DNA from: Cyanidioschyzon merolae
Taxonomy: Eukaryota
Length of the DNA: 64,000 bases
Strand: one strand, 5' to 3'
Assembly: GCA_000091205.1 (NCBI GenBank)
Contig: AP006493.2
The translations under genes and the position numbers were made by a program. Positions 2,885-53,859 of the stretch are shown piece by piece. Position 1 is the first letter of the stretch. Every line of letters starts with the position of its first letter. A model generated the notes under the pieces. It made no database searches, was not told the origin of the DNA, and saw nothing but the letters and a program-made list of their open reading frames with translations.

Positions 2885-3135
2885 CGAGCTCAAAATCCGA
2901 CTCAATGTTTGATGGTGAGGTCGCGTTACGCAGGCCAAGGAGCTCACATGAGAAGGCTCGCTTCGTTCCCATACGAACATTCAAGGGTCTCGTTCGACGC
3001 GAGCGCTTCCAGCAGGCTCCTGGAACCCAAATGCATGTATAACATGCTCGAATAGAGCGAAGGCAATGCGTTTACGGGATCAGAGGGGGTTCAAAAGCGG
3101 CCTCTAAGGTCGGGCTCGCAGTGCGCGTCAGCACA

Positions 3136-5652
3136 CTAGTATTCGTCCCCATCGCTGGTGAGCGACTGCTCCGTAGAACTTTCATCGCTCCCGTTCATTT
3201 CATACTGGGGAGTGGCGGGCATCATGGCGTTTGCATGGTCATGGATACTCATCGAACTACCTCCGTCCAGAGCGGTTGTTGCTGTTGCTGCAGGGTATGG
3301 CGCTTCGAGTCCACCACTCTGGGCATACGGCATCGTGGACGGGTGCCCCGAAGCCGGTACTCCAGCGCCGTTGTAGAGCGTACGCCCCTCGGTACTACCA
3401 GCGGCGAAATACGGAGAGGACGCTGCACCAAGGTGCTCCACGTCCCGTTGCCGTTGCGCGTTTGCTGCAGCTTTCCGGGCGCGCTCCAGTTCGTGATTCA
3501 ACTTGAGCAGCATTCGGTTGATCGACGCGACGCGTGCACCCGCTGCCGTAGGGCTCATCGTTCGCAGCGGATCCAGGTCTCGACCGACAGGGCGCAAGCA
3601 TTCATTACAGAACGCCTGCAACTCACGCAAAGTCTCATTGCTGGCCTGTTGAATATTCATTTCATACTCGCCGGAGCTCGCGCGCGTCAAGAGACCGGGT
3701 CGAGAACCGAATAGCTCGACAAGACGACGCAGCTGCTGGCCATCGAGGCGTCCTATGTCTTCAGCCAACTGCGCCATTTCCTGTTGAGTGACTGGCACTT
3801 TGGCGAGACTCGCAATAGCATCGCGGCTCGGTAAGCCGCCCGCGGAAACCGGAGGAGATGCGGCGACACCGCGTCCGCTTGTCGACGCCGTTGATAGCAA
3901 CGCTTCGGCTTCGCGTTTCTCTTTCTGCAAGGCGGCCAGTCGCTGCTCGAGCTCTCGAACTCGCTCGAATGGATCCATTCGCTTCCTAGATCGACGCACG
4001 GGCGTGCCTTCATGAGGGCCCCGCTCGTTGGCTCCGCTAACGTAGGATCCATATCCTGGGGCCTCGCCAGTGTACGGTCTTTGGGAAGCATTTCGGCCGG
4101 TCGAACGCCGTCTGCGTTCTGTGTTGCGTGCGAGTGCGCTATCAACTCCTCCTCGTCGCGCCTTTGCCGCATGGCTGCCTTGCCGAAAAGCCGCTGCCAA
4201 GCCGCGCTGTCGTTTCCTGGCTGCAGCTTGTGAGACGGCATGGTGACTCGTACTGTGCGTTGACTGTATTTCTCCGGGCGGTGGCAAAAACTGCATTTTG
4301 CGTTCGAATGCTTCGTTCAGCATTTTGGCGATGTTATAATACTCCGAGTCTGGGGGGTTGTAAGTCATAGCATTCGACCAAACGAGACGGACGTCCCGTC
4401 GAAAAGCCTCCGGATCGGTGCCGTACTCGCCGCTCTCTAACTTTTGGCGAACTGTCCCCAAATCCATGGGCTGCTTAATGATCTCGAAATAGTCCGGGAT
4501 GGCATCCGGATTCCAGAGCTTATCAACTGGAAGCAGAAAAGCACGCGCCTCTTTCATTTTCATAATTTCTTTGAGGACCCGAGCACAGAATCGCATTTGA
4601 GGGAACCGTCGCAAAATCGTCGTACCATCGAGCCGCTCGCCTGGTTGTTGCGAAAACCGCTGACTCGGGGTGCGCAATCGTCCCGATGAGGATATTGTCG
4701 GAGAGCCCAGGGTTCCACCAACGACTCCTTGGCCTCCTGTACTGGGACGCGGCCCCTCTGAGGCAGCATCGGTCGAGTGCACTTGAGAATGCGCACCTTC
4801 ATTCTGCTGAACCGCTGTGTCGAATGAGGACGTTTTGCCTTTCGAGCGGTTGGTATCAGAATCAGTAGGCATGTATACTGCGCCGGCTTGGTGCCGAGCC
4901 AGCACAGCTGCCATAATTTGGCGGCTGTGGATATCGATAATCCGCCGTCGCTCCTCTTGGAGCGCTTCCATACGTTGGAGAAGTTCGTCGTGCAGTTTCG
5001 CTCGTTCTTCCCGGTCAGCCGGGACAAAGTCCGCGGATAGCGTGCTCTGCTCCCCTGCGTCCTTCTTAGAGGTCGACACCGGCTTGTTCGGTAACGACGG
5101 TGCTGCAGCGCGCTTGGGACGGGGGCGCAACGAAATCCCGCTGTGCTCCTCGGGTGTGGAGCCGTCCGGAAGCACGGGCGCCACGCTCGGCGTCCTCGTC
5201 TTTGCCGTCCCGATGTTGGGGTCTGCGGCCTGCAACTGGTTGGTTATGTCGCTCTGGTTGCCGTGGTTTTCCGCTGCGTGGCTTTGGCCAGTGGGCTTGC
5301 CATTCACGTCAGTGCGCTCGCTGCCTTGTACTTGCGCAGGGTCTACCAGGCCCTCTTTCAACTCTTTAGAGACAGCTTCTGTTTCGCTCGCTACCGTTTC
5401 GTGAAGCCCTGGCCTCACCGGTGGATTCAGTGCGTTGGGGACGGAAGCTAGCGCAGAAGATTCCGAAAACGATGATGAGGCGTCCTCCGACTCCGTGGAC
5501 GGGGTGCCTTGCGCGCGCACAGCCTGTGCGGTTTGCGGCGCGGCGTTCTGCTGTTCCCCCAACCCAACCATGCTACTCTTCCCCTGTGCCCCGTCTTCCA
5601 TCCTGCGGGAGAGCAAGCGATCTTGACCGCTCTGCGTCCCAGAACTGCGCAC
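3136..5652 (-). CDS. BET-family chromatin reader with a single bromodomain plus a C-terminal ET domain (BDF1-like).
   Basis: Bromodomain signature FLLPVDKLWNPDAIPDYFEIIKQPMDLGTVRQKL...DVRLVWSNAMTYNPPDSEYY. The ET-domain-like segment MAQLAEDIGRLDGQQLRRLVELFGSRPGLL...NETLRELQAFCNECL lies downstream. The rest is low-complexity S/A/P-rich sequence. Confidence 0.8.
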   Translation of the reverse strand: MRSSGTQSGQDRLLSRRMEDGAQGKSSMVGLGEQQNAAPQTAQAVRAQGTPSTESEDASSSFSESSALASVPNALNPPVRPGLHETVASETEAVSKELKEGLVDPAQVQGSERTDVNGKPTGQSHAAENHGNQSDITNQLQAADPNIGTAKTRTPSVAPVLPDGSTPEEHSGISLRPRPKRAAAPSLPNKPVSTSKKDAGEQSTLSADFVPADREERAKLHDELLQRMEALQEERRRIIDIHSRQIMAAVLARHQAGAVYMPTDSDTNRSKGKTSSFDTAVQQNEGAHSQVHSTDAASEGPRPSTGGQGVVGGTLGSPTISSSGRLRTPSQRFSQQPGERLDGTTILRRFPQMRFCARVLKEIMKMKEARAFLLPVDKLWNPDAIPDYFEIIKQPMDLGTVRQKLESGEYGTDPEAFRRDVRLVWSNAMTYNPPDSEYYNIAKMLNEAFERKMQFLPPPGEIQSTHSTSHHAVSQAAARKRQRGLAAAFRQGSHAAKARRGGVDSALARNTERRRRSTGRNASQRPYTGEAPGYGSYVSGANERGPHEGTPVRRSRKRMDPFERVRELEQRLAALQKEKREAEALLSTASTSGRGVAASPPVSAGGLPSRDAIASLAKVPVTQQEMAQLAEDIGRLDGQQLRRLVELFGSRPGLLTRASSGEYEMNIQQASNETLRELQAFCNECLRPVGRDLDPLRTMSPTAAGARVASINRMLLKLNHELERARKAAANAQRQRDVEHLGAASSPYFAAGSTEGRTLYNGAGVPASGHPSTMPYAQSGGLEAPYPAATATTALDGGSSMSIHDHANAMMPATPQYEMNGSDESSTEQSLTSDGDEY

Positions 5653-43000: not shown

Positions 43001-44349
43001 CTACACGCTTTGTTCATGCCTTGAGCGTTCTCTTCCAAAGTATCATTCGATGTATCGTTGTGCTATTCAGAATTTGTAATCAGAGCTTACGGAATTTCGT
43101 GTGCAGTTGCAGGATTCTCGGTTGGTTTCCCGGGATGACGACTGCGATCCTCGGCAGACGGACTTTCTTATGTCGCTGGAATCCAGATGGATCGCGGCGT
43201 TTTACAAAATGAGCTCCCTCCATAGCCCCTATCAATAACATGTCCATACGAGAGAGTCTTCGCTCGTGTGCCTGCTCTCCGCTTTCCATGCTCAATCCAC
43301 GCACTGTTCACCGTTTCGATCATGCTGTTTGACGGCAGATCGTCGGTGCTGCGCAACCGCACCGCTGCATGGTCAAGCGAGAATCCTCAAGGTCGACCTC
43401 CAACGATTCCTCCACAAGCTCATACGGGAACCGCTGTGAACTCGTCACGCCCATTGATCGATTCCGTTCCACATTCGAGTACGCTGCTCGTTGTAGCCAG
43501 ACATGAGACAACGTTCGAGTGCAACATGATACCTGTCGCAGGATATGCATCTAGAGGCTCCCTGTCGCTTCCGTCTGTACGCAGACGGATCTCGGACTCG
43601 GACGTCAAGCATCGCAGTGATCGCTTCCAGTGGAGCGTGCGTCACCGCTCAGTACGACAGGTGCAGTGACGCACCCGAGTTTCCCGGCCAGCGTACATGC
43701 CTGCTTTTTGGTTCCGCTGCTTGTCTCATCATGGACAAGAGCGCGGTCCATAGATCCCTCATCGACGATGACGTCGAGCGGTTGTCTATGCAGCGGACAT
43801 CGTCGTCGCTGCGGGAATCGCAAATAAGGAGCACATGCTCGTGAGGCAAGGTACCTGGTGTGGACCCGGAGGCGTGCATTCGCGGAAGCCTTCTGTACCG
43901 GTCTACGGTACGCATCGTGCGATGAAGGAGGTGTTACCCTGCTCCAGTACAGCGCGTTGGAAGCGGAATACTGGCCAATATACTTAGAATGCGTGAATAG
44001 CCTCCAATTTCATGACGAAGAAGGTCACACACTGAGACTGTATACGAAGAAGATGCGAATGGCATGCGAAGCATAGATCGTTACGTTTTCCTGTGCGTGA
44101 AACGTTTGTACAGCAGCCAGGAGCAACGCCATGCGGCCTAGGACGCTGCCATGAACACCCCTCGACGTCCTGAAACATATCTGGCGGGAGAAAGAAGACC
44201 GATCCATTTCAGGGTCGGAGATAAGAGGGAGCGATCGAGAGCAGTCGCATGAAAAGCCCACAATGGTCAGTACTGATTACATCAGGAACTGTCCCAAGAA
44301 TCCTTTTTTGTTTTCGTCCTGGAGCACCCGTTGCATTTTAGTCTGACAT
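43001..44349 (+). repeat. Copy C of the 1.35 kb repeat (direct relative to A).
   Basis: Collinear with copy A over its whole length at roughly 97-99% identity, with the same decayed integrase ORF layout. It starts 38 bp after the stop of ORF 42040-42963. It ends about 120 bp upstream of the probable start codon of the mannosyltransferase gene. Confidence 0.85.
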
Positions 44350-44471
44350 ATGGTTGCATCAACGCCGAGCCATCTCGCCATGAGACAACTGCGGGCAACC
44401 AGCCGCGGCGTTTTGGCAGTTTGGCGCACTGGGTACGCTCCGCGCAGTCTCCTCGGGAGAAAACTACGGAT

Positions 44472-45983
44472 ATGCTCGTTTCGGAAAGAAACAAGCTTCG
44501 CAACCTTGTGACCCTTCTGGTACTTGTTTATATCATCATCCATGAAATATGCTGTCATAAGCACTGGCAACAAACAGCTGGGATCGCGGGTCCACTGTCG
44601 GAGACAGCTGCACCACTGCGTTGGGAGCATCGTGCCTGGAACGCGATCGCTCGTGCCACCAACCTAGCTGTCGCTCGAACTAGGCGCGGAAGCAGTCGAG
44701 ACCGTTGGTTCCACGAGTATGGAAACTGGTGGGCCTCCTCTGTTCGCTTGGGCAATGTTCTAGGTCGGTCGCCGCGCGAGCCTATAGGCCGCTACACCCT
44801 CCGCCAAGAGTGGTCCTGGTTTGTGGAGTTGCTTGAAGAGAGTCTCGAGGTGGATTCTGTTGCACCAACAGGCCAGTTTGAAGGCACAGGTATTGTGATG
44901 GCGATCGGAAGGCCGCAGCGCTATGCGATTCCAGCACTTGTCACCTTGCGGTTGCTGCGACTGCTCGGCTGTCGCCTGCCTGTCGAGTTCTGGTACTCGA
45001 GCGCCCGTGGCGAGTCGCCGTTCGACAGCGGCCTCGAGGCGGCGCTCCGACGCATGAATCGAGTCCCTGATACCAAAGGTACCGCCAATGAGGCACCCAT
45101 ATATTTTCGTGATCTCGACACCGTGGTGCCTCGCCAACGGGACCTCGGTGGTTGGGAGTCGCTCTTCGCTATCAAACCGCTTGCGATCGCGTTCAGCAGA
45201 TTCGCTCATGTGCTGTACCTGGATGCGGATGCCCACCCGCTACGCGACCCTACCTATCTCTTCTCGCTGTTTGCTCCTGAAGCGGTGTCGGAAACGAGGT
45301 CGAGTCGAATACCGACAGCCGTGTTCTGGCCGGACTACTGGATCATGCCCGTCGATCATCCAGCGTTTTCCATTTTCCGAGTAGTGCCGCGAACATGGCG
45401 CGAACGACGAGAACAGGAGAGCAGTGTCCTGCTCGTTGATAAGAGCGATGTTCATGAATCCTGGATACCTTTGATGCTTTCTGTGATGCTCAACGTGCGA
45501 TCCGATTACACCTACCAGTACTTGCACGGTGATAAGGATACATTCCGATTCGCTTGGATGGCACTGGATGCTCCGTTTGATCGTATAGAGGTACCACCCG
45601 CGGCAGCTGGGCACTGGTCCTCCGAGGGCCTCTTCCACGGTACCACCATGGTCCAGCATGACCCCAACGGGAAGCCTCTCGTCCTCCATCATAATCTGGA
45701 GAAGCTCGATGCCTGCAGCTTGGATCGCAGCGCCCGGTGGTGGCCCTCGGGTCGTCTCTGGGACGCTGTACAGTTTGGTGGCCAAGCGAACTGGACCACC
45801 CAGGGACGCTGGATCGGGCCTTCGTCTCGGATTTGTTTCACCGGCACTCGAGTGAAAACAGTGCCGTTCGAAGAGTACATCGGACAGGATTTCGAAACGC
45901 AATTTTTTCGACCAGCGTTGGACGCAGTCCTCACGGACGCTTTCGCGAAGCGCCACCGATGGAGTCGCTGCCGGGCCGCTTGA
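44472..45983 (+). CDS. Golgi type-II alpha-mannosyltransferase, MNN1/MNN2 (GT71 / 'Mannosyltransferase putative') family.
   Basis: A short cytosolic tail plus TM anchor (LVTLLVLVYIII). Catalytic-domain motifs are GIVMAIG...LPVEFWY, the DxD motif YLDADAHP, and HGDKDTFRFAW. The ORF on the track begins at 44331 inside repeat C, and the ATG at 44472 is preferred. Confidence 0.6.
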   Translation: MLVSERNKLRNLVTLLVLVYIIIHEICCHKHWQQTAGIAGPLSETAAPLRWEHRAWNAIARATNLAVARTRRGSSRDRWFHEYGNWWASSVRLGNVLGRSPREPIGRYTLRQEWSWFVELLEESLEVDSVAPTGQFEGTGIVMAIGRPQRYAIPALVTLRLLRLLGCRLPVEFWYSSARGESPFDSGLEAALRRMNRVPDTKGTANEAPIYFRDLDTVVPRQRDLGGWESLFAIKPLAIAFSRFAHVLYLDADAHPLRDPTYLFSLFAPEAVSETRSSRIPTAVFWPDYWIMPVDHPAFSIFRVVPRTWRERREQESSVLLVDKSDVHESWIPLMLSVMLNVRSDYTYQYLHGDKDTFRFAWMALDAPFDRIEVPPAAAGHWSSEGLFHGTTMVQHDPNGKPLVLHHNLEKLDACSLDRSARWWPSGRLWDAVQFGGQANWTTQGRWIGPSSRICFTGTRVKTVPFEEYIGQDFETQFFRPALDAVLTDAFAKRHRWSRCRAA

Positions 45984-50741: not shown

Positions 50742-51899
50742 TCAGGCGGTTCGGAAGATATTGCCGAAACACTGGGTACAGTACCAGGCACCGGCGCTAT
50801 TCTGGGCAAAAGCTACCGAGCAGAGCTCGTAGTCTCCCAACATGTTCGCTCGATGCGGTGGCGAACTGATAAATAAGTTGATACACTCGTGTGCCACATG
50901 CTCCGCTTCCGTGAAAAACGCGACGTTTTCACCGCTGAACACAATACCTGCAGGTACAGGTACGATCGGATGGCTCAGGTCCTGGTCACGGAAGACGCCT
51001 GTGCGAGCCATGTACTGGGACCAGGCCAGCGCCTCGACGTAGAGGCCCTGGTTGTAGCCGAGAGGTCCGAGTCCGTTCTCAGCCCTGAACTGGTTTGTGT
51101 ACTCGAGGGCTCGCAGGCCAAGTGCTTGGATCGACGAGCTCGGTGACGGCTCTGCGCTGGACGGGCTTGATGTCGGGGGCGCTGCGGTCTCGGGCGGCAC
51201 CGCCGAGGACACAGCAGTAGGCGTCGGCGCTGGTGCTGCCGTTGGTGTAACGAACGGCGGCGGCGGTACCGGCGTCTCCACCACAACGATAACAACAGGT
51301 GTCGCAGGAGCAGCGGTTACCACCGGAGCGCTCGACTGTATCGAAACTGCCGTTGGCGTCGGCGAAGGTGTTGGTGTTGCGATTGGCGTCGTCACGCTTG
51401 TTACTGACGGGCTCGCGACTGCCTCCTGGGACACGCGTTTGCAGTCGAGACCGTCGTCGCAGATGCAACCGACTGCACCAGCCACTAGAAAGTCTCCCGT
51501 GCAGCAATAATAAACACCAGGGCCACCGACAATATTCTCTGAGAGATACGTAGCATGGCATTGGGTGCTCGAGTCACCGCACGCTGCCGCGCAGATGGCG
51601 GTTTGATCCACAGCTGTCTGACGCATCGAGAGCGAGGACAGGGGTAGCACGGCTTCGGCTTCACGTTGTGCAGCTTCCGCCAGCTCCACTAGATACGCAG
51701 CCATTTCAGCGAAACGGAGCTCAAGCTGCTGCTCCTTCAGCTGCATCTGGCGACGGATGGAGAATAGCTCCTGTATGTGGAGCACATCTTCGATGGAAAA
51801 TGCCGTTACGAGGCTCAGAAGCATCATCATAGCTAGAACACTGCACACGGCACGCCGAGGCGATAGCAAACGAACAACGCTGCGGGGAAGGCTCTCCAT
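50742..51899 (-). CDS. Secreted CAP-superfamily protein (SCP/PR-1/PRY-like). It has an N-terminal Cys-rich module and a Thr/Pro/Ala-rich linker.
   Basis: Signal-like N-terminus. Cys module CAAACGDSSTQCHATY...YYCCTGDFLVAGAVGCICDDGLDC. The mucin-like linker is PTPSPTPTAVS...APATPVV. The C-terminal CAP domain reads LEYTNQFRAENGLGPL...HPIVP...GENVAF...HVAHECINLFISSPPHRANML...YCTQCFG. Confidence 0.75.
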   Translation of the reverse strand: MESLPRSVVRLLSPRRAVCSVLAMMMLLSLVTAFSIEDVLHIQELFSIRRQMQLKEQQLELRFAEMAAYLVELAEAAQREAEAVLPLSSLSMRQTAVDQTAICAAACGDSSTQCHATYLSENIVGGPGVYYCCTGDFLVAGAVGCICDDGLDCKRVSQEAVASPSVTSVTTPIATPTPSPTPTAVSIQSSAPVVTAAPATPVVIVVVETPVPPPPFVTPTAAPAPTPTAVSSAVPPETAAPPTSSPSSAEPSPSSSIQALGLRALEYTNQFRAENGLGPLGYNQGLYVEALAWSQYMARTGVFRDQDLSHPIVPVPAGIVFSGENVAFFTEAEHVAHECINLFISSPPHRANMLGDYELCSVAFAQNSAGAWYCTQCFGNIFRTA

Positions 51900-52242
51900 A
51901 TCGTAGAGAACAGTCGCAAATGTTCTGCTTGTTCAGACGTTAGTGTATGCACAGAGACACGCGCTCCCGGCAGCAACAATGCCAGGACTTGGGTGAGACG
52001 TTTCGCTGGTAGACCACCTTTCATATGGAGAGATGGAAGGCACGCGCGTTCCTGGCACGAGCAACGGTGGCAGCTTCGAGGATGGCACCGGCCTGCGGGC
52101 CCCGCAGCGCCACGGCGCGCGGCAGCACCGCGCGATCCGCGTAACGGATGTCCGTTTTGCCAGCGGGCAGCGGCAGCGATGGCATCGTGCGTCGCAGGAT
52201 CGCAAACGCGCATCACCAGCGCGTTCCGCGATTTTGCCGTGC

Positions 52243-52368
52243 GCGTTTGTTGATGTCCGTATTATACATGAATGTCGCTGTTGAGAAGGTCGAATCACGA
52301 TCGGTGCGTTTGTTTATGTCCGTACTATACATGAATGTCGCTATTGAGAAGGTCGAATCACGATTGCT
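52243..52368. repeat. Tandem duplication (2 x 63 bp) in the bidirectional intergenic region between the two CAP paralogs. A (CGAAC)5 tract also lies at 52551-52576.
   Basis: Unit gcgtttgtt[g/t]atgtccgta[t/c]tatacatgaatgtcgct[g/a]ttgagaaggtcgaatcacgat. The two units differ at about 5 positions. Confidence 0.7.
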
Positions 52369-52803
52369 GGTATACGGCTCGTAGCTGGGTGCGCGATCCG
52401 GCATCGAGAAGCGCGCTGGAAGCATCTGCGCGGCCACTGGATGAAACGGAAACTGGTGGGATCGGTCCCGAAGGAGAAACGTTACTCGGGTCTGGTGGTG
52501 CGCATCGCCAGTACGTTGCGTTGCGGAGAGGATGCGGCGCGGGTGAGCTGCACCGAACCGAACCGAACCGAACCGAACCGAGCTCAACTGAACGCAGGGC
52601 TCTTTTCTTGGAAACCGTTTCATCGCTGCGCTGTGCGCGCTTGGCATCGCGTTGTCCGAGAGCGGTAACGGTTTGTTTCCGGTGAGCCGTGATATATGGT
52701 GTGCATGGTGGTTTTTTGCGAGTGGAGCTTTGGAAAGCGAACAGGTTTCGCCAAGATTGTAGTCTAAACAGCACTAATCACAGAAGTAGCTTATCAAGGC
52801 AAA

Positions 52804-53859
52804 GTGAGGTTCATGAGTTCTTACATGCTGCAGCGCGAACGAGGCTCACGTGCACCATGTTATTCGATGGCGCGCTGCCGAGTTCCTGCGAGAAACCGCC
52901 TTCACCGCTGGGTGCTCCTATTTTTCAGTGTGTTCGTGCTGTGGTTCGCGGCCCAAAGCATGCTTGTTCTGGGACACGCAGAAGAAGAATTTATACCACA
53001 GAGAGCAGTGAATCAACCAGAGCTGGTGCAAGACTCGAGAGCGCTAGCGGCGACTGCGGCAGCGCCGCTGCAAGCAATGCGGCTTGAAGCTGGAACGCCG
53101 GCTCCAACGACGGGTATTCCTTATTCCGCGCTCTCGCCGAGCGTGCTAAGCACCGCCCAACAAGCAGCACTTTGCGCGGAGCTCTGCCCGAATGCAGTCA
53201 CGACCTGCGCAATCAAGTTCATCTACGGCACCGGAACGACCTGTTGTTGCTCGGGGGCGTTCTTTGTCCGTGGCAGCATTGGACACCTTTGTAGCGACCA
53301 ATCCATTCCCAAACTCGTCCCCGAGTCGCTGCTCAACCAAGTCATCACCGCAGCGAATGCATCGAGTACCGGTGTTGAGGATAAGCCGCCCGGAGCGATT
53401 ACCAAGGCGAATGCCAGTGCGCTGCATCTCGCTGGGCGCAGCGGTCTCGACCGGATAAACCAAGTGCGCGCTGCTCAGCGCAGAGAGCCCATTATTTGGA
53501 GTCAAGCGGTCTACGAGAGTGTTTCTTTCTGGCTCTCTTATCTGGATACAACCCATCTCTTCATTACGCAAAACTTGGGCAAACCAGCAAAGCCCTTTCC
53601 GCCCGGTGCACTGTTCCTTGCAGAGGTGGTGCTCGCTCAGCGCCTTCCTGAGAATGTCACCGCAGAGGAGGCTGGCATAGCTTGCGGAAACGCCCTGCTC
53701 AACGGGAACATTTCGGCGGAGATCACACTGGCAAACTATGAATTCGGCGCTGTGGGTACCATGCCGCGTTCCTCAGGTCCCGAGTGGCTATGCTCTATCA
53801 GTCTCGGAAACATGTTTCGATACGGCGGGACAAGTTTCCCCAATGCAACGGGTTCATAG
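52804..53859 (+). CDS. Divergent paralog of the CAP-superfamily protein, with the same N-terminal Cys-rich module and a degenerate CAP-like C-terminus.
   Basis: Cys module AALCAELCPNAVTTCAIKFIYGTGTTCCCSGAFFVRGSIGHLCSD aligns cysteine-for-cysteine with 50742-51899. The C-terminal region (LHLAGRSGLDRINQVRAAQRREPIIWSQ...) is CAP-like but diverged. It has a signal-like N-terminus, and the start codon is uncertain. Confidence 0.5.
   Translation: MRFMSSYMLQRERGSRAPCYSMARCRVPARNRLHRWVLLFFSVFVLWFAAQSMLVLGHAEEEFIPQRAVNQPELVQDSRALAATAAAPLQAMRLEAGTPAPTTGIPYSALSPSVLSTAQQAALCAELCPNAVTTCAIKFIYGTGTTCCCSGAFFVRGSIGHLCSDQSIPKLVPESLLNQVITAANASSTGVEDKPPGAITKANASALHLAGRSGLDRINQVRAAQRREPIIWSQAVYESVSFWLSYLDTTHLFITQNLGKPAKPFPPGALFLAEVVLAQRLPENVTAEEAGIACGNALLNGNISAEITLANYEFGAVGTMPRSSGPEWLCSISLGNMFRYGGTSFPNATGS

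Follow-up and report, generated by a model that had tools for sequence, protein, structure and literature searches.

Gene pair and gene models

The stretch of DNA analysed here (the window, 64,000 nucleotides of contig AP006493.2 from the alga Cyanidioschyzon merolae, to which all coordinates refer) has about 55% G+C and is eukaryotic and almost intron-free in appearance. It contains two genes of chromosome 11 of C. merolae 10D, CMK229C (gene A, minus strand) and CMK230C (gene B, plus strand), which code for two putative secretory proteins, each with a Cys-rich module followed by a C-terminal domain of the CAP type. A previous reading of this DNA from its letters alone (the sequence-only reading) had described them as head-to-head, divergently transcribed paralogs, and the open reading frames (ORFs) were found as described, with a 913-bp spacer. 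Judged by BLASTP they are indeed true paralogs in both domains, as the CAP regions match with an E value of 2e-14 (28% identity over 144 amino acids) and the Cys modules with one of 4e-8 (33% over 66 amino acids). No further copies of the family were found in the window. The features of the locus are the following:

50742 to 51899, minus strand: gene A (CMK229C, BAM80584.1), full ORF of 385 amino acids; the deposited model has 294 amino acids and starts at M92.
50745 to 51134, minus strand: CAP domain of A, apparently of bacterial type, residues 256-385, with motifs GENVA and SPPHRANML.
51135 to 51425, minus strand: mucin-like linker of A, residues 159-255, rich in Pro/Ser/Thr/Ala/Val and poorly conserved between species.
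51426 to 51620, minus strand: Cys-rich module of A, residues 94-158, with 8 Cys (103, 107, 114, 132, 133, 145, 147 and 153).
51621 to 51794, minus strand: helical, coiled-coil-like segment of A, residues 36-93, present in the A type only; its helicity is predicted from the sequence.
51795 to 51899, minus strand: putative signal peptide of A, residues 1-35, MESLPRSVVRLLSPRRAVCSVLAMMMLLSLVTAFS, then IEDVL, with a predicted cleavage site.
51900 to 52812, no strand: divergent spacer, 913 bp from ATG to ATG, putative bidirectional promoter region.
52143 to 52166, no strand: inverted pair of AACGG words, TAACGGATGTCCGTTTTGCC, a post hoc candidate cis-element.
52243 to 52368, no strand: imperfect tandem duplication, 2 x 63 bp, 58/63 positions identical.
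52552 to 52581, no strand: microsatellite (ACCGA)6 / (CGAAC)5, with a copy number of 5 or 6 among C. merolae contigs.
52813 to 53859, plus strand: gene B (CMK230C, BAM80585.1), 348 amino acids, 348/348 identical to the deposited protein.
52909 to 52974, plus strand: hydrophobic segment of B, residues 33-54, h-region of a signal peptide or signal anchor.
53149 to 53307, plus strand: Cys-rich module of B, residues 113-165, with 7 Cys in C. merolae and 6 in orthologs.
53407 to 53856, plus strand: degenerate CAP-fold domain of B, residues 199-348, with both motif His replaced and Glu271 kept.

The deposited CMK229C protein, labelled "SCP domain-containing" in UniProt, is identical to A from residue 92 on (294/294), and by sequence comparison this model is truncated, starting at an internal Met and lacking the signal peptide. 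The exact 385-amino-acid product is called on at least 24 metagenome contigs, and the residues 1-91 left out of the model are conserved in the Cyanidiococcus and Cyanidium orthologs, signal peptide included. The omitted region (51624-51899, minus strand) codes for the signal peptide and the conserved helical segment. For B, the start at 52804 given in the sequence-only reading had to be corrected, as this codon is a GTG and the first ATG lies at 52813. An alternative start at M19 (52867) would produce a canonical signal peptide, as in the Cyanidium ortholog and in the B-type copy of a more distant relative (contig L011, see below). The EukProt model of the B ortholog of Cyanidium caldarium (EP00166, P004386) is frameshifted, its C-terminal half being out of frame when compared with KAK4535289.1.

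Entry into the secretory pathway

A contains a single strongly hydrophobic segment, with a Kyte-Doolittle maximum (19-residue window) of 2.31 at residues 18-36, and a weaker peak in the linker (1.75 at about residues 189-211); its orthologs have equivalent N-termini once they are extended to the upstream ATG. B also has a single N-terminal hydrophobic segment (maximum 2.25, residues 34-52). In the CMK230C model this segment is preceded by a charged N-terminus of 32 residues (52813-52974, plus strand). The N-terminus of the Cyanidium B protein is MQKWSATAWLALWLLLLWTGAHC. In the published SignalP table of Hirooka et al. 2026 (PMC13353863, Data Set S9) both Cyanidium orthologs are classified as Sec/SPI, and both deposited C. 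merolae models are negative, so that the pair was not counted among the C. merolae secretory proteins. The negative call of A follows from its truncated model, and the lack of the signal peptide in that model is probably the reason why the gene was not flagged; that of B may be caused by its long n-region. Taken together, the N-termini suggest that both A and B enter the secretory pathway in C. merolae.

The Cys-rich module

The cysteine pattern proposed in the sequence-only reading was found for the most part: C-x3-C-x6-C ... CC-x-G-x-F-x-V-x-G-x2-G-x2-C-x-D is present in A and B and is kept in all the orthologs aligned, bar one position in Cyanidium B, although the "Y-x" placed before the CC is absent from C. 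merolae B. The module contains eight Cys in A and six to seven in B; C145 and C153, which only A has, suggest an additional disulfide in this protein. A Pfam search with the module gave no match, even at E=10, and a profile of seven sequences run against 1.84 billion representative proteins recovered A-type and B-type members of the family plus one repeat protein. This sole outside match (731 amino acids, tandem repeats, E=7e-4 over 9 stretches) was rejected as compositional. In Galdieria the family was not seen with the module profile, the CAP domain alone not having been searched there. The AlphaFold2 model of the module (predicted local distance difference test, pLDDT, 75) consists of one helix packed on a four-stranded sheet, and its comparison with PDB libraries gave no fold match. 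The absence of Pfam matches, of outside relatives and of PDB folds thus bears out the proposal that this is no known domain, and supports an orphan, family-restricted module within the limits of a medium-confidence model. The combination is a new architecture within the known CAP superfamily, defined by the orphan module and by the Cys-then-CAP order.

The CAP domains

The presence of a CAP domain in both proteins, as initially proposed, is directly supported by Pfam for A, which matches PF00188 with E values of 7e-13 to 3e-12 (47.8-49.9 bits, cut-off 21.1), but not for B, which stays below the threshold (13.9 bits, best E=0.1, partial) and has no NCBIfam match either. One copy is conserved and the other diverged, as had been noted. 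The CAP nature of B comes from its paralogy to A and from the fold match of its AlphaFold2 model, which has a mean pLDDT of 53 and of 60-80 in the CAP region: this region matches 4IFA from Bacillus anthracis (score 12.9), BB0689 from Borrelia (10.6), SAV1118 from Staphylococcus aureus (10.2), the plant PR-1 protein P14a (10.2) and yeast Pry1 (9.8). As modelled, the C-terminal domain of B is therefore a CAP fold, and the alpha-beta-alpha sandwich characteristic of the superfamily is present. It also contains three N-x-S/T sequons and a conserved C-terminal tail, FRYGGTSFPN.

The conserved His/Glu pocket residues of CAP proteins (the CAP tetrad) were located by aligning A and B with 4IFA and with each other. 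In A, Asp305 takes the position of the first motif His, and Glu324 (GENVA) and His349 (HRANML) are kept, suggesting that a ligand or metal pocket is probably retained in this protein. In B, the two His are replaced by Thr and Ser, and Glu271 is retained. The corresponding motifs are FRDQDL and PPHRANML in A and FITQNL and NISAEITL in B, with the GENxA Glu present in both, and more distant A-type relatives retain both motif His.

Several comparisons point to bacterial relatives. A profile of five A-type sequences found 4IFA as its best match among PDB sequences, with human GAPR-1 aligned over the first helix only; nothing was found in PDB with the A sequence alone. The non-algal database matches of the A-type CAP are bacterial or metagenomic "YkwD"/CAP proteins. 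A also matches TIGR02909 (YkwD) with 28.5 bits (E=1.2e-6, positions 7-125 of 127) against a cut-off of 171, so that, as far as this score goes, it resembles the family and is not a member of it. In a locus scan seeded by two peptide patterns, 41 prokaryotic genome loci were matched by the A-type profile along the whole domain, with 29-68 bits. On eukaryotic PDB entries the profile reaches 25 bits or less, with partial alignment only. Cyanobacteria (Leptolyngbya, Lyngbya, Crinalium and others) account for 33/41 of the prokaryotic loci, but scores just as high occur in other bacteria, for example 66 bits.

Bacterial CAP/SCP proteins (YkwD-like, including 4IFA, SAV1118 and BB0689, and cyanobacterial and actinobacterial members) share with the pair the motifs F-R-x-x-x-G, GEN[IV]A and S-P-[PG]-H-R-x-N-[ML]-L; they provide the best PDB sequence match and the top three fold matches, and several of those matched have a signal peptide, a Pro/Thr-rich linker and a C-terminal CAP domain. 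The C. merolae pair differs from them in being nuclear-encoded in a eukaryote, in its N-terminal Cys module, which is absent from all the bacterial matches, and, for A, in the Asp at the first motif His as well as in the TIGR02909 score given above. In comparison with eukaryotic CAP proteins (PR-1/P14a, Pry1, GAPR-1, CRISPs and venom antigen 5) the order of the domains is reversed: CRISPs carry their hinge and Cys-rich domain C-terminal to the CAP domain, whereas in A and B the CAP domain is C-terminal and the Cys module N-terminal. No Pfam Crisp match was found in A or B, and the module is unrelated to the hinge/ion-channel-regulator domain of CRISPs by Pfam or fold. By these score comparisons the A-type CAP looks bacterial in type, with hints of a cyanobacterial source, and a bacterial or endosymbiotic origin is to be taken as a lead and not as a result. 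According to the text of the horizontal gene transfer (HGT) survey of Rossoni et al. 2019, the Gene Ontology (GO) term "extracellular region" is absent from its HGT set.

The A orthologs share "SIEDVLH.QEL...ELRF..MAA" in the segment 36-93. The mucin-like linker proposed earlier does exist in A (99 amino acids; P 25%, S 17%, A 16%, T 16%, V 15%) and is probably O-glycosylated, to judge from its composition. Within it, residues about 187-208 (51275-51340, minus strand) form a hydrophobic stretch, ATPVVIVVVETPVPPPP, that is kept in C. merolae and in the Cyanidiococcus-type orthologs.

Conservation of the pair

C. merolae shares the gene order ASL, B <-> A, mtIF2, GT71, MnmE, SNase with three other lineages, namely Cyanidiococcus yangmingshanensis, a second lineage resembling Cyanidiococcus, and Cyanidium caldarium, and B and A are again head to head in a fifth, more distant relative (contig L011, Logan SRR31152685, 70% G+C). 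As judged from gene order and sequence, the pair is therefore an old, syntenic set of divergent paralogs of the Cyanidioschyzon/Cyanidiococcus/Cyanidium group. In L011, B consists of 144 N-terminal residues at the cut end of the contig, which are open and begin with a short canonical signal peptide. The same contig carries, besides the B/A pair, a third paralog (3113-4087 plus, 1-432 minus and 1082-2293 plus for the three), in which a signal peptide and a Cys module are followed by a linker rich in Gly, Asn and Ser and by a CAP domain with both His.

Identity of C. merolae A and B to their orthologs differs strongly along the proteins:

A: CAP domain 59-96%, Cys module 40-88%, linker 34-59%, N-terminal region 25-45%.
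B: CAP-like domain 58-86%, Cys module 53-79%, linker 36-58%, N-terminal region 15-29%.

Identity is thus much higher in the folded domains than in the linkers and N-terminal regions: the CAP domain of A is 95-96% identical to that of the Cyanidiococcus-type orthologs, and identity across genera is 84-86% and 58% for the CAP-like domain of B. Among seven C. merolae haplotypes, A shows 4 synonymous and 0 non-synonymous differences, and B 8 synonymous and 3 non-synonymous ones. Metagenome "variants" of 362 and 344 amino acids were considered as a linker-length polymorphism and rejected, as they are alternative start-codon calls.

Expression in the diploid and haploid phases

Hirooka et al. 2026 (PMC13353863) describe a walled diploid and a wall-less haploid. 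They report that protein makes up 50-55% of the diploid wall, which is presumed to be proton-tight, and that 35-50% of the genes for secretory proteins are phase-biased. The RNA-seq values of that work (Data Sets S8 and S9) are given below in transcripts per million (TPM), with log2 fold changes of the diploid (2n MS1) over the haploids n MS1 Ha3 and n 10D, in this order:

CMK229C (A): 2n MS1 361-386, n MS1 Ha3 41-46, n 10D 52-60; log2 fold change 3.39 and 2.97.
CMK230C (B): 2n MS1 476-509, n MS1 Ha3 5.7-9.2, n 10D 36-39; log2 fold change 6.28 and 3.94.
CMK228C (flanking, mitochondrial IF-2): 2n MS1 35-41, n MS1 Ha3 48-63, n 10D 61-67; log2 fold change -0.31 and -0.52.
CMK232C (flanking, argininosuccinate lyase): 2n MS1 54-63, n MS1 Ha3 95-110, n 10D 82-99; log2 fold change -0.53 and -0.37.

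A and B are 8- to 77-fold higher in the walled diploid than in the wall-less haploids, and the flanking genes do not follow. The Cyanidium caldarium orthologs are also diploid-high (log2 fold change 3.56 for A and, weaker, 1.75 for B), so that co-expression of the pair, which the sequence-only reading had suggested checking, is shown in two species, with a diploid bias in both. These data also dispose of the idea that the plus-strand gene could be an unexpressed pseudogene, as B reaches 476-509 TPM in diploids.

The pair falls in the same class (2n >> n) as the diploid-predominant secretory proteins of Cyanidiophyceae described in PMC13353863 (FAS1-domain, lysyl oxidase and trefoil-like proteins), one of which, LOX, has been proposed there to be of suspected foreign origin, as suggested here for the CAP pair. 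The families are unrelated, and the pair is not mentioned in the text of that paper. The same source reports phase-specific trimethylation of histone H3 at lysine 27 (H3K27me3) on most diploid-predominant genes in Cyanidiococcus, which by analogy may offer an alternative route to joint control, independent of the spacer sequence. The H3K27me3 target lists of Mikulski 2017 are organised by GO term, and unannotated genes such as A and B do not appear in lists of this kind.

The divergent spacer

The 63-bp tandem duplication, thought at first to be perfect, is identical at 58/63 positions (94% over 1.9 copies in Tandem Repeats Finder). The 63-bp word occurs twice in 64 kb against 0 expected, and was absent elsewhere in the window; both copies are present in 7/7 C. 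merolae haplotypes, with single-nucleotide polymorphisms (SNPs) inside the copies. The pentanucleotide tract does exist, as (ACCGA)6 at 52552-52581, and together these are two of only four tandem repeats in the 64 kb. Neither the 63-bp unit nor the microsatellite was found in the 564-1672-bp spacers of Cyanidiococcus, the second Cyanidiococcus-like lineage and Cyanidium; alignment of the spacers between species gave chance-level matches only, with no alignable DNA, and an Rfam search of the region gave no match. From their distribution and divergence, both repeats are best read as recent, C. merolae-specific products of slippage or duplication, for which a species-specific modulating effect is possible.

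A different signal came from short words. The four spacers share 14 7-mers (null mean 3.2, maximum 9), six of which carry an AACGG/AAACG core, and the density of AACGG/CCGTT words is 6.6-10 per kb within these spacers, compared with 1.6-3 per kb in the surrounding DNA. The enrichment has a Markov-1 P of about 0.04 to <0.0005, and the coding region of A is also rich in these words. Besides the inverted pair at 52143-52166, other AACGG/CCGTT words in the C. merolae spacer start at 52063, 52445, 52615 and 52667. The core resembles a MYB site; as the motif was picked after seeing the data, it is a tentative candidate only.

In the segment 52095-52212, left of the 63-bp repeat, 10D differs from 6/6 metagenome haplotypes by substitutions and small indels; outside it, the spacer is nearly identical between 10D and these haplotypes.

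Interpretation

On balance we lean towards A and B being a co-regulated pair of diploid-phase extracellular glycoproteins, located in the wall/matrix or acting on it. According to this proposal, both proteins would enter the secretory pathway, each built from the disulfide-rich family module, a linker and, at the C-terminus, a bacterial-type CAP domain, and the shared spacer, as a putative bidirectional promoter, would switch both genes on together in the walled diploid and leave them low in wall-less haploids such as 10D. Once outside the cell, they would be part of the largely proteinaceous diploid wall/matrix or would act on it, a role suggested by the phase of their expression. A would present a CAP pocket on a mucin-like stalk and would probably keep the ancestral ligand or metal binding. 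B, which has lost both His, is rich in putative N-glycosylation sites and evolves faster under constraint, would probably be a non-catalytic binding or scaffold partner. Glycosylation of both proteins is predicted from their sequons and linker, and a division of labour, or any interaction between A and B, is likewise conjectural.

Several points weigh against this proposal. CAP domains have no single known activity, and "ligand binding" is therefore generic; the mean pLDDT of the B model is low (53, and 60-80 for its CAP region); neither of the deposited C. merolae models is called positive by SignalP, and B could, by its N-terminus, be a type II membrane protein instead. A and B still reach 36-60 TPM in wall-less 10D, so that the pair is not strictly wall-specific. 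The assignment of the CAP domain to the bacterial type comes from score comparisons and not from a phylogeny, with eukaryotic CAPs sampled through PDB and a word-limited search whose 8000 candidates were perhaps swamped by the Pro/Thr linker.

It seems unlikely that the pair represents a PR-1/Pry-like defence or detoxification system, binding sterols or lipids or acting as antimicrobials in the hot-spring mat, with a diploid bias that would simply reflect the diploid being the natural form: the CAP domain scores closer to bacterial proteins (29-68 bits) than to eukaryotic PDB entries (25 bits or less), no GHYTQ-type motif is present, both His are missing from B, and the expression data come from clonal laboratory cultures in which both phases were grown identically, with no microbial challenge mentioned in the available part of PMC13353863. 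Nor is the description of the pair as secreted effectors supported, since the organism is a free-living alga and expression follows the life-cycle phase and not infection. About as improbable as the defence function is that the proteins are not released, being residents of the endoplasmic reticulum, Golgi or vacuole, or, in the case of B, a type II membrane protein, for instance in the processing of wall precursors in diploids. The B hydrophobic segment of about 22 residues after 32 charged ones and the negative SignalP call of the deposited B model would fit this localization, but the B proteins of Cyanidium and L011 have short canonical signal peptides, and A and B contain neither a second hydrophobic segment nor a KDEL/HDEL-type C-terminus. 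A mucin-like stalk and multiple disulfides, in addition, are typical of extracellular proteins.

In the sequence-only reading, the (CGAAC)n tract and the 63-bp units had been taken as candidate cis-elements common to both genes, which would set the joint expression of the pair. Their central position in the shared spacer, where two of the four tandem repeats of the 64 kb lie, and the retention of both 63-bp copies in all seven C. merolae haplotypes speak for such a function. However, the repeats are confined to C. merolae, while Cyanidium keeps the joint diploid bias and co-induces the pair in their absence, so that they are not the conserved basis of co-regulation; the copies have diverged at 5/63 positions, with further haplotype SNPs, the copy number of the microsatellite varies, and no word shared between species falls inside the 63-bp units. 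We consider a functional role of this kind improbable. Far less credible still is that B is a decaying, functionless duplicate, as its lack of a Pfam match, the loss of both CAP His and its faster evolution might suggest. Its ORF is intact in four lineages, the 144 residues of L011 are open too, identity across genera is 84-86% and 58% for the CAP-like domain against 15-29% for the N-terminus, differences among haplotypes are 8 synonymous to 3 non-synonymous, and expression is high in diploids. The conservation of the domain and the pattern of polymorphism indicate that B is not a pseudogene, and a dead B is effectively refuted.

Returning to the extracellular, diploid-phase pair that we favour, a bolder and rather doubtful extension of it can be formulated, in which the Cys module would represent a novel small fold held by disulfides, fitting a bacterial, possibly cyanobacterial, CAP domain into the protein-rich, proton-tight wall of diploid Cyanidiophyceae. 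A (active pocket on a glycosylated stalk) and B (dead pocket) would form an obligate hetero-pair, and the head-to-head arrangement would have persisted throughout the history of the Cyanidioschyzon-Cyanidium clade for the sake of stoichiometric co-expression, perhaps through AACGG (MYB-like) sites or phase-specific H3K27me3.

Among models for minimal photosynthetic eukaryotes, C. merolae is one of the most important. Its diploid phase with a wall was not described until 2026, and little is known of the composition of this protein-rich, acid-proof wall. The pair provides two genetically tractable candidates for wall/matrix components that were missed by the published analysis of secretory proteins, together with a corrected CMK229C model, a case of a bacterial-type CAP domain apparently recruited with an orphan Cys module, and a conserved divergent pair suited to dissecting phase-specific promoters. 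The genes themselves were already deposited and CMK229C automatically labelled as SCP; the family with its orphan module and reversed domain order, the cryptic CAP fold of B, the conservation of the head-to-head pair, its co-induction in diploids and the faulty CMK229C model are undescribed in the literature searched, whose text contains no mention of CMK229C, CMK230C or CAP/SCP proteins in Cyanidioschyzon, and the supplements of Cho et al. 2023 and Stephens et al. 2024 have no entry for either gene. This is a useful advance at the level of annotation, which does not overturn current ideas and would be unsurprising to a specialist.

Neighbouring genes

CMK227C, which codes for a GT71 mannosyltransferase (44331-45983, plus strand) and is syntenic in all four lineages, is mildly diploid-biased, with 85-94 TPM in 2n MS1, 57-62 in n Ha3 and 44-50 in n 10D (log2 fold change +0.87 and +1.17), and a value of 0.92 in Cyanidium. 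CMX085C, a small unplaced gene adjoining CMK227C, is diploid-specific, with 8-11 TPM against 0.

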